Of a DNA stretch of 23,589 bases, positions 5,742 to 5,819 are shown in pieces; within the stretch, counting starts at the first letter, position 1; every line of letters begins with the position of its first letter. Where the stretch lies: the UHGV virus genome UHGV-0074613. One strand, given 5' to 3'. Source of the stretch: a virus. The notes under the pieces are model-generated. The model worked only from the letters and a program-made list of their open reading frames with translations. It ran no database searches and had not been told where the DNA came from. Position numbers and translations under genes: made by a program.

Positions 5742-5819
5742 AACGGTAAGAGCATTTGTCGAGGACTCTTGCGAACCCGGAGACTCGATCACCTACAAAT
5801 GCTCTTGCCTGTTGTGTCC

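Follow-up and report, generated by a model that had tools for sequence, protein, structure and literature searches.

A conserved stem-loop family of temperate phage leaders and its copy beside the tRNA-Arg of a lambdoid prophage

The window analysed here is the whole stretch of 23,589 nucleotides (nt) of the virus genome UHGV-0074613, and the element in question is hairpin A, a stem-loop on its minus strand that meets the 5' end of a tRNA-Arg gene. Both belong to a lambdoid prophage and sit in its immunity region, with the repressor gene on one side and the leftward early genes on the other. Read along the minus strand, the order of features is repressor terminator, putative promoter block, leader hairpins 1 and 2, hairpin A, tRNA-Arg, a small RNA (sRNA) resembling DicF, hairpin B, a terminator and an open reading frame (ORF). 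Because of the gene content on both sides, the tRNA is placed within the prophage and not at its attachment site. A host chromosomal tRNA at an attachment site was considered, since the first BLAST matches spanned only the tRNA and lay at prophage ends, and it is ruled out by these flanking genes. The features are as follows.

50-1039, minus strand: tyrosine integrase of the ordinary phage type, 4.7 kb from hairpin A
5006-5326, minus strand: first ORF of the left operon
5345-5362, minus strand: further terminator
5506-5585, minus strand: hairpin B (CACAACAUGAAAGCGCACUCA...UGAGUGCGCUUCCAGUUGUG), 1 nt after the U-run of the DicF-like terminator
5587-5650, minus strand: DicF-like sRNA with intrinsic terminator (GGCGGUACC...GGUACCGCC CUUUUU), downstream of the tRNA
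5666-5741, minus strand: tRNA-Arg, anticodon UCU (ARAGORN; Rfam tRNA 70.5 bits), the only tRNA placed in the window
5739-5816, minus strand: hairpin A, full stem-loop of 78 nt (from sequence, fold and match to the family pattern)
5748-5806: perfect 12-bp repeat forming the inner helix of hairpin A, 5806-5795 pairing with 5759-5748
5823-5862, minus strand: leader hairpin 2, terminator-like, with an 11-bp stem and a 12-nt loop (5862-5829, then CUUUUUC)
5879-5915, minus strand: leader hairpin 1, an inverted repeat that forms in the fold of the whole leader
5919-5961, minus strand: putative pL-like promoter, TTGCAT (5948-5943), 18 nt, TATAGT (5924-5919), read from the sequence of an AT-rich block
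6020-6037, minus strand: repressor terminator (terminator scan)
6054-6773, minus strand: CI-like repressor with helix-turn-helix and S24 peptidase domains (Pfam, PHROGs)
6786-7109, plus strand: Cro-like ORF
7102-7602, plus strand: CII-like ORF

The original prediction for this locus described a perfect 12-bp stem with a 35-nt loop, and this is what the DNA contains: AAGAGCATTTGT (5748-5759) and ACAAATGCTCTT (5795-5806) are perfectly complementary arms of 12 nt around a loop of that length. The 14 of 15 pairs claimed for the extended arms (5745-5759 and 5795-5809) are also present. On the tRNA-sense strand the helix runs further outward, and the element is therefore 5739-5816, a larger one than had been described. 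CACAAC at 5816-5811 pairs with GUUGUG at 5744-5739, and GG at 5809-5808 with CC at 5746-5745, while A5810 is bulged and C5807.A5747 is mismatched. The resulting closing stem has about 20 bp (6 + 2 + 12 bp, interrupted by a bulge and a mismatch). Its last three bases (5741-5739) are G1-U2-G3 of tRNA-Arg(UCU) as placed by ARAGORN, so that the helix overlaps the tRNA instead of ending 5 nt upstream of it as first stated. The hairpin had correctly been assigned to the transcribed, tRNA-sense strand, where it shares one untranslated leader with the tRNA. The minimum free energy of hairpin A is -31.7 kcal/mol (z = -4.1), and none of 200 shuffles was as stable.

The internal TCGAG/CTCGA stem fared less well. 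It is predicted for the plus strand only; on the transcribed strand the interior has a weak and different fold, and the centroid structure leaves it open. Structure in the interior is unsupported because only one close homologue of hairpin A is known (L003, 89.5% over 76 nt). Scans of IMG/VR for relatives of the window's own interior returned no matches in a first round and three in a second, and the one examined (L285) was a chance match. An alternative pairing of 5755-5766 with 5816-5827, as in an attenuator switch, does not form in the leader fold; its partner is missing in L003 and different in L004, and we treat it as chance. A search of Rfam 15 over 5742-5816 gave no match at the gathering score and none at E ≤ 10.

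Apart from the 12-bp arms, no perfect inverted repeat in the 23.6-kb window reaches 12 bp with a loop of up to 60 nt. Dinucleotide shuffles contain 0.115 such repeats per window, and 8.5% of them have at least one. Judged on the window alone, the repeat is thus only mildly improbable, and the argument that it is too long to have arisen by chance is a weak one. A chance palindrome is nevertheless dismissed, not because of the length of the repeat but because the hairpin has homologues whose stems covary.

The family to which hairpin A belongs was defined in this work by its base, CACAAC-(N)-GG-Y-AAG ... CTT-W-CC-GTTGTG, around 35-65 nt. The search pattern, CACAAC N0-1 GGYAAG N35-65 CTTWCCGTTGTG, was derived from the window and two related E. 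coli prophage loci, and the minus strand of the window at 5816-5739 fits the base exactly. The first of these loci, L003 (E. coli 21AR0133), has hairpin A without the tRNA; GTTGTG is followed there by a different RNA of 230 nt, then by a DicF-like element and a B-type hairpin. The second, L004 (E. coli F467), has leader hairpin 2 and a single hairpin with the base CACAACGGCAAG..CTCTTACCGTTGTG and a wholly different inner helix (GUGCUAACA/UGUUAGCAC); directly behind it comes TGGAGAACT..., as behind hairpin B in the window. In a third locus, L001 (E. coli PCP07014), the same tRNA-Arg is joined to a preceding B-type hairpin by an unchanged junction, GTTGTG/GCATTAGC. The pattern scan of IMG/VR found at least 120 contigs with 81 distinct sequences, and 44 stretches match among the one-genome-per-species contigs, mostly from Enterobacterales. 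Family members are 68-89 nt long, and their enteric consensus is CACAACAGGTAAGAGCATTG ... CAGTGCTCTTTCCGTTGTG.

Copies are present in well-known phages. The phage lambda copy (NC_001416 44787-44862) is part of the untranslated late leader, where it follows the tR' terminator of 6S RNA at a distance of 5 nt, without a tRNA. It shares with the window the sequence family and the geometry of bulge and mismatch, as well as its place on the transcribed strand of an untranslated leader just past a terminator; it differs in belonging to the late (pR') operon, in having no tRNA behind it and in its unrelated interior. Phage P1 has copies in the C1-controlled ban operon, which contains a 'dicF-like region' and the genes for tRNA-Asn, tRNA-Thr and tRNA-Ile; one lies at AF234172 69503-69589, 1 nt after tRNA-Thr, and two more variants are close by. 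A B-type copy is found upstream of dicF in the dicB operon of the Qin prophage of E. coli K-12. The hairpins are unannotated in the lambda, P1 (535 features) and K-12 records. Against Rfam 15, the P1 copies and other homologues gave only weak matches to miRNA precursors, and a full-text literature search for the family consensus found no paper printing the sequences.

Two observations concern these records. The 76-nt lambda hairpin also occurs in low-coverage contigs of about 48.4-48.5 kb and in small fragments (L241, L253, L262, L265, L272 and others) assigned to unrelated taxa, including Pseudomonas, Shewanella, Oceanobacillus, Neobacillus, Enterococcus and Kitasatospora; these assemblies are most likely contaminated with phage lambda DNA. 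In P1, plp and upl are annotated opposite to the strand of the ban operon, over two hairpins and the structured RNA between them (L126 2973-3542, AF234172 69472-70041), an annotation that may merit a second look.

Conservation and covariation in related prophages had been set beforehand as a test of the predicted hairpin, and it is clearly conserved there, with covarying stems. Across the family the inner helix is exchanged through compensatory changes, for example CTGCTTG/CAGGCAG, CCAAATCG/CGATTTGG and TGACACTTG/GAGTGTCAT. As a safeguard against circularity, a second sample was collected solely by a motif that often follows the hairpin (GTGAATGCGCAGGCTGATGCGC). Upstream of it, 65 of 125 distinct real segments finish in a closing stem of 16 bp or more, vs 9 of 125 shuffles. 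Among 30 motif-anchored hairpins, 88.5% of cells were paired, a percentage inflated by the retention of these hairpins because they were closed, compared with 54.5% in shuffles and 35-45% with the partner slid. Both sides had changed in 18 of 18 pairs, and the covariation score was 0.90 vs 0.24. What counts as evidence here is the variety of sequences that build one and the same helix in that position. GC-rich, non-enteric phages have unrelated arms, such as CATCACG/CGTGATG, CACAGG/CCTGTG and TGCATCGGAGG/CCTCCGATGCA, in the same build of 6-7 bp, a small internal loop or bulge and 8-12 bp.

The strand on which the structure is kept was examined in hairpins oriented by their asymmetric bulge. 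All 108 tRNAs located within 300 nt share the hairpin's strand; the opposite strand has none. In two sets of distinct hairpins, the more stable fold is that of the transcribed strand in 67 of 82 and 52 of 57 cases, and G:U pairs in the closing stems, sense vs antisense, number 135 vs 62 and 112 vs 50. Closing stems have a mean length of 21.7 bp in hairpins found by the pattern and 20.8 bp in those anchored by the motif. Stem covariation, the G:U bias and mean stems of 21-22 bp together point to a selected RNA structure of the size of an RNase III substrate, and we are highly confident that the hairpin is a conserved, transcribed RNA structural module.

The same comparisons bear on a DNA-level role. 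Small-RNA cassettes would be swapped at a joint formed by the conserved arms, or by a hairpin that single-stranded DNA extrudes in the manner of attC sites or miniature inverted-repeat transposable elements, with the RNA structure of secondary importance. Between phages, homology ends precisely at the borders of the hairpin, GTTGTG being followed by tRNA-Arg in the window, by the 230-nt RNA in L003 and by TGGAGAACT... in L004, and at least five different downstream modules stand behind the same junction (130 occurrences). Hairpins A and B bracket the tRNA and sRNA unit as direct repeats 231-233 nt apart, and the ends ..YAAC / GTTR.. resemble attC core sites. However, G:U pairs (about 2:1) and fold stability (80-90% of copies) favour the transcribed strand, the orientation to transcription is invariant (108 to 0), the ends of non-enteric members (CATCACG..CGTGATG, CACAGG..CCTGTG and TGCATCGG..CCGATGCA) lack AAC/GTT, and the sole recombinase is the phage integrase 4.7 kb away. 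With this strand bias, fixed orientation, unrelated ends and no IntI, exchange at the arms by ordinary homologous recombination is therefore better seen as a by-product than as the function, and we consider a dedicated DNA joint improbable.

Two groups of known palindromes were compared with the family in this connection. Integron attC sites are likewise imperfect palindromes (57-141 bp) with extrahelical bases, a variable centre and conservation only at the ends (..AAC / GTT..), and they bracket exchangeable cassettes. They were rejected as a match, ACACAAC and GTTGTGG each being one position off RYYYAAC/GTTRRRY, the non-enteric ends being unrelated, IntI being absent and the G:U bias marking the RNA strand. 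The Correia elements of Neisseria and the ERIC sequences of enterobacteria are short, sharp-edged palindromes that are co-transcribed and fold into long hairpins processed by ribonucleases. Unlike the phage hairpins, which have variable interiors, are restricted to the leaders of phage operons and keep a fixed orientation to tRNA cargo, those elements are near-identical repeats dispersed over chromosomes.

The position of the hairpin relative to its cargo is exact. Five independent loci (the window, L001, L010, L054 and L063) have the same overlap of exactly 3 nt between hairpin and tRNA-Arg(UCU), although the hairpin interiors and even the subtypes differ among them. In 30 P1-like contigs the hairpin starts 1 nt after tRNA-Thr, and in about 50 of the 130 occurrences it is directly followed by a tRNA-shaped RNA. 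It is not specific to tRNAs, as the copies of L003 and lambda have none. The idea of a precursor-tRNA leader or processing element, one of the options raised in the original prediction beside a small structured RNA and a protein-binding site, is thus favoured by a conserved family abutting tRNAs and tRNA-like RNAs, but not in its restriction to tRNA.

Its occupation of tRNA-like slots in arrays, as after the tRNA-Thr of these P1-like contigs, could also mean that the hairpin is itself a small stable RNA, derived from or mimicking a tRNA and serving, for example, to decoy host or defence enzymes. Its length of 68-89 nt is tRNA-like, and a T-arm-like GGGTTCGAATCCC hairpin stands beside the 3' arm in 13 of 97 distinct members, the window copy having GGGTTCGCAAG. 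ARAGORN and Rfam, however, call no member a tRNA, a 20-bp acceptor-like helix is not tRNA-like, and the interiors are highly variable and mostly without the T-arm motif, that of the window being weakly structured. There is little chance, in our view, that the hairpin is such an RNA.

The tRNA-shaped RNA is an object in its own right, separate from the hairpin finding, and may be the more interesting of the two. It is not present in the window; in most related loci it fills the slot of tRNA-Arg, directly after the hairpin, and it is unannotated. Its plan is X'(6 nt)-GUG-AAU-[GCGCA GGCUGA UGCGC]-variable 30-170 nt-[GCCGG AGAUCAGCA CCGGC]-CAC-X. The closing helix covaries, each of 21 distinct 5' 9-mers being matched at 8 or 9 of 9 positions, and the two hairpin loops are complementary to each other (GCUGAU/AUCAGC). 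It was found in at least 120 IMG/VR contigs, including those of GC-rich non-enteric phages (an example is L038 3940-4062), and a degenerate copy lies between dicF and dicB of E. coli K-12 (L127, about 2452-2600). It had no match in Rfam 15 at the gathering score, and a full-text search of the literature found no paper printing its motifs. In nine loci (L031, L035, L038 at 3971-4017, L091, L111, L115, L124, L208 and L236) the variable domain contains a mimic of 16S rRNA around nt 243-285. The mimic equals E. coli rrsH 254-282 at 25 of 29 positions, has compensatory changes in its flanking helix and gives a local match to SSU rRNA in Rfam (E = 1.2e-7); perhaps it decoys a ribosomal protein or an rRNA-directed enzyme.

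A broader reading takes the hairpin together with one cargo RNA as an unrecognised small-RNA cassette system in the first-transcribed operons of temperate phages (lambda, P1 and lambdoid prophages). The hairpin would then be both an RNA processing site and a DNA swap joint, and the cargo a host-takeover or anti-defence RNA, which may be a tRNA, a tRNA-shaped RNA (in some cases with the 16S mimic) or a DicF-like sRNA. We regard this reading as rather doubtful.

In the window, hairpin A stands in an early leader that appears to be under repressor control. An operator-like palindrome, CTACTTAAAGTAG, lies at 5926-5938, and variants of it lie at 5949-5961, 6776-6788 and 6799-6811, the latter two in the intergenic region between the repressor and cro. 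These palindromes flank the repressor gene and are candidate oL and oR sites. Over the block 5910-6037, the window shows about 79% identity to the sequence that follows the repressor gene in a prophage of E. coli Nissle. Because of this homology and the oL/oR-style pattern of palindromes, we infer from the sequence a pL-like promoter under repressor control whose start is near 5912. Leader hairpin 2 would lie about 50 nt past this start and ends 6 nt before hairpin A; it is kept in L004 with one G.U change. Hairpin A is about 96 nt downstream of the putative start.

Beyond the tRNA, the DicF-like sRNA scores 18.9 bits with the Rfam DicF model, which is below threshold, and aligns with K-12 dicF and homologues. 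The elements UUGGCGGU..CA..CCGCCCUUUU are kept in K-12 DicF, L001, L003 and L038, and the 5' 'seed' differs (GCUGUGUGUAGUC). Hairpin B has the architecture of hairpin A (CACAAC, bulge, 2 bp, mismatch, 10-11 bp and a closing GUUGUG), and folds with -28.8 kcal/mol (z = -5.4); homologous copies stand in L003 and ahead of dicF in the Qin dicB operon. The P1 ban and Qin dicB operons have homologous modules in repressor-controlled early operons with dicF or a dicF-like region, in P1 also with tRNAs, and the order hairpin, cargo, DicF-like sRNA, hairpin is that of the window. They differ in cargo, which is tRNA-Asn, tRNA-Thr, tRNA-Ile and the tRNA-shaped RNA in P1 and includes no tRNA in Qin.

The terminator-like hairpins at 5862-5823, 5630-5587 and 5362-5345 imply that the left operon needs some form of antitermination. 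Hairpin A might be the signal for it, a nut-like boxA or a put-like RNA allowing read-through of these three leader terminators. Its 3' arm holds the boxA-resembling UGCUCUUAC, the family consensus being CAGUGCUCUUU, which resembles the boxA of rrn operons, and small hairpins with GAAA loops precede many family members. Yet the boxA-like UGCUCUU(U/A) is fully paired, is replaced through covariation (CAGGCAGCUUUCC, GAUUUGGCUUUCC and, in B-type hairpins, GUGCGCUUCCAG) and is missing in the non-enteric relatives. The rightward operon of the window has no copy of the hairpin, and the family also occurs between tRNAs and downstream of lambda tR', where Q already antiterminates. We therefore think an antitermination signal very improbable. 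A lambda-type nut site was rejected separately; such a site has a free boxA (CGCUCUUUA-like) and a boxB, one per early operon, whereas UGCUCUUAC is fully paired, not conserved in the family, followed by no boxB and without a rightward copy.

The put sites of HK022 and the nut sites of lambda are alike to hairpin A in being structured RNAs in the terminator-bearing leaders of early operons, and in the boxA-like octamer. In HK022, put is made up of two stem-loops, about 70 nt in size, that follow pL and pR directly and bind the zinc-binding domain of beta' (PMC9378689). By this description hairpin A is set apart, being a single long stem about 96 nt past the putative start, with no rightward copy and many copies elsewhere. 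The small hairpins just mentioned are GC-rich, have A-rich loops and covarying stems, and directly precede the long hairpin or a tRNA (for example in L006, L028, L057, L016, L023 and L010; in P1, L126 about 2825-2845 and 3210-3228). Among them are GCCUG-GAAAGA-CAGGC, GCUCC-ACGAAAC-GGAGC and CCUCG-GAAGAGA-CGAGG. In form they resemble boxB, but relative to the boxA-like sequence they stand on the 'wrong' side.

The closest functional parallels of the hairpin are probably the RNase III signals of the T7 early transcript and the stems flanking 16S and 23S rRNA. These are duplexes of about 20 bp with a small loop or bulge, located between the units of a polycistronic RNA. Cleavage of such stems precedes the trimming of tRNAs by RNase P, and the rRNA stems release spacer tRNAs. 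The hairpin family has no sequence similarity to the T7 and rRNA stems and differs from them in its variable, often branched interior and in a conserved base common to many temperate phages; cleavage is predicted for it, by analogy. Hairpin A has the roughly 20-22 bp of mostly uninterrupted double-stranded RNA (dsRNA) expected of an RNase III substrate, an enzyme that accommodates about 22 bp of dsRNA (PMC6212723). DicF of the dicB operon is described there, citing Faubladier 1990, as matured with RNase III. A paper on lambda (Daniels et al., Virology 167:568, 1988; reference 49 of PMC7547250) reportedly announces in its title RNase III processing sites in the late transcript. The lambda hairpin at 44787-44862 belongs to that late leader and is a probable site of this processing, a link drawn from title and position only.

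Hairpin A may be a processing or punctuation hairpin whose closing stem is cut by RNase III, a reading we prefer and hold with about as much belief as doubt. It would be transcribed within the long untranslated leader of the repressor-controlled early-left operon, as one copy of a module that punctuates such leaders directly 5' of a small-RNA cargo, be it tRNA-Arg(UCU), another tRNA, the tRNA-shaped RNA or nothing recognisable. The closing duplex of about 20-22 bp would be the substrate of the host's double-strand-specific RNase III, and once the stem is cut, the cargo would be free of the leader upstream, including the terminator-like hairpin. In the predicted fold of the precursor, hairpin A is fully formed and the acceptor stem of the tRNA is not. 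The outer helix that holds G1-U2-G3 would dissolve on cleavage. This would allow the acceptor stem to form and RNase P to remove the short 5' leader that remains. The comparisons establish the structure, with its conservation, covariation, RNA-strand bias, fixed orientation and placement next to cargo; we infer the pL-like promoter as the source of the transcript, RNase III as the enzyme and its action before RNase P.

Hairpin A and its kind might instead not be cut at all and act as structural insulators or stabilisers, keeping Rho off the long leader, blocking 3' exonucleases or the 5'-end-dependent RNase E, or isolating the folding of the tRNA. The untranslated leader of about 590 nt consists almost entirely of hairpins, and a 421-nt leader segment folds as a hairpin chain with z = -7.0. 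Structure and not sequence is kept across distant lineages, and the evidence for selection at the RNA level fits such a role equally well. It leaves unexplained, however, why the stems cluster at 21-22 bp with a loop or bulge 6-7 bp from the base and why the hairpin abuts or overlaps the 5' end of its cargo to the nucleotide, and an uncleaved hairpin would sequester G1-G3 of the tRNA. We consider an uncleaved insulator unlikely.

Several points weigh against the processing hairpin, besides the inflated pairing percentage given above. The window copy belongs to the minority that folds slightly better antisense (-29.7 vs -25.0 kcal/mol sense over 5742-5812), and its C5807.A5747 mismatch would read G.U on the opposite strand. 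About 20 nt of arm sequence are nearly invariant in the enteric subfamily, which a purely shape-reading enzyme does not explain and which could reflect recent spread or a sequence-specific partner. The pL-like promoter is a weak match to the consensus and was missed by the promoter scan, and the likeness to RNase III substrates was judged on length and shape only.

Should the processing hairpin be the correct reading, the conspicuous palindrome of the window would be part of the maturation signal of a phage rare-codon tRNA, a reader of AGA and AGG, expressed from the early-left promoter on induction. By analogy, the window hairpin would be a phage processing stem-loop of the RNase III type and thus of a known kind, whereas the hairpin family itself appears under-described: a structured module of about 80 nt is present in the textbook phages lambda and P1 and absent from Rfam 15 and from the annotation of their records. 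The module is also a handle for finding non-coding cargo in phage leaders, as scanning beside it exposed the tRNA-shaped RNA, and it offers a testable model for the release of tRNAs and sRNAs from long phage leaders studded with terminators.

Two further observations were made elsewhere in the window. A match to the int-alpA RNA of Rfam (41.8 bits, above the gathering score) lies at 16277-16339 on the plus strand, in the middle of the prophage, upstream of the ORF at 16361-16738 and far from the integrase. An inverted repeat of 20 bp (CAGATTCTGACGCATCAAAA...TTTTGACCCGTCAGAATCTG) is located at 8316-8417 in the region of the replication genes; it is also found in the Nissle prophage (L002 4935-5051) and may be related to an origin.

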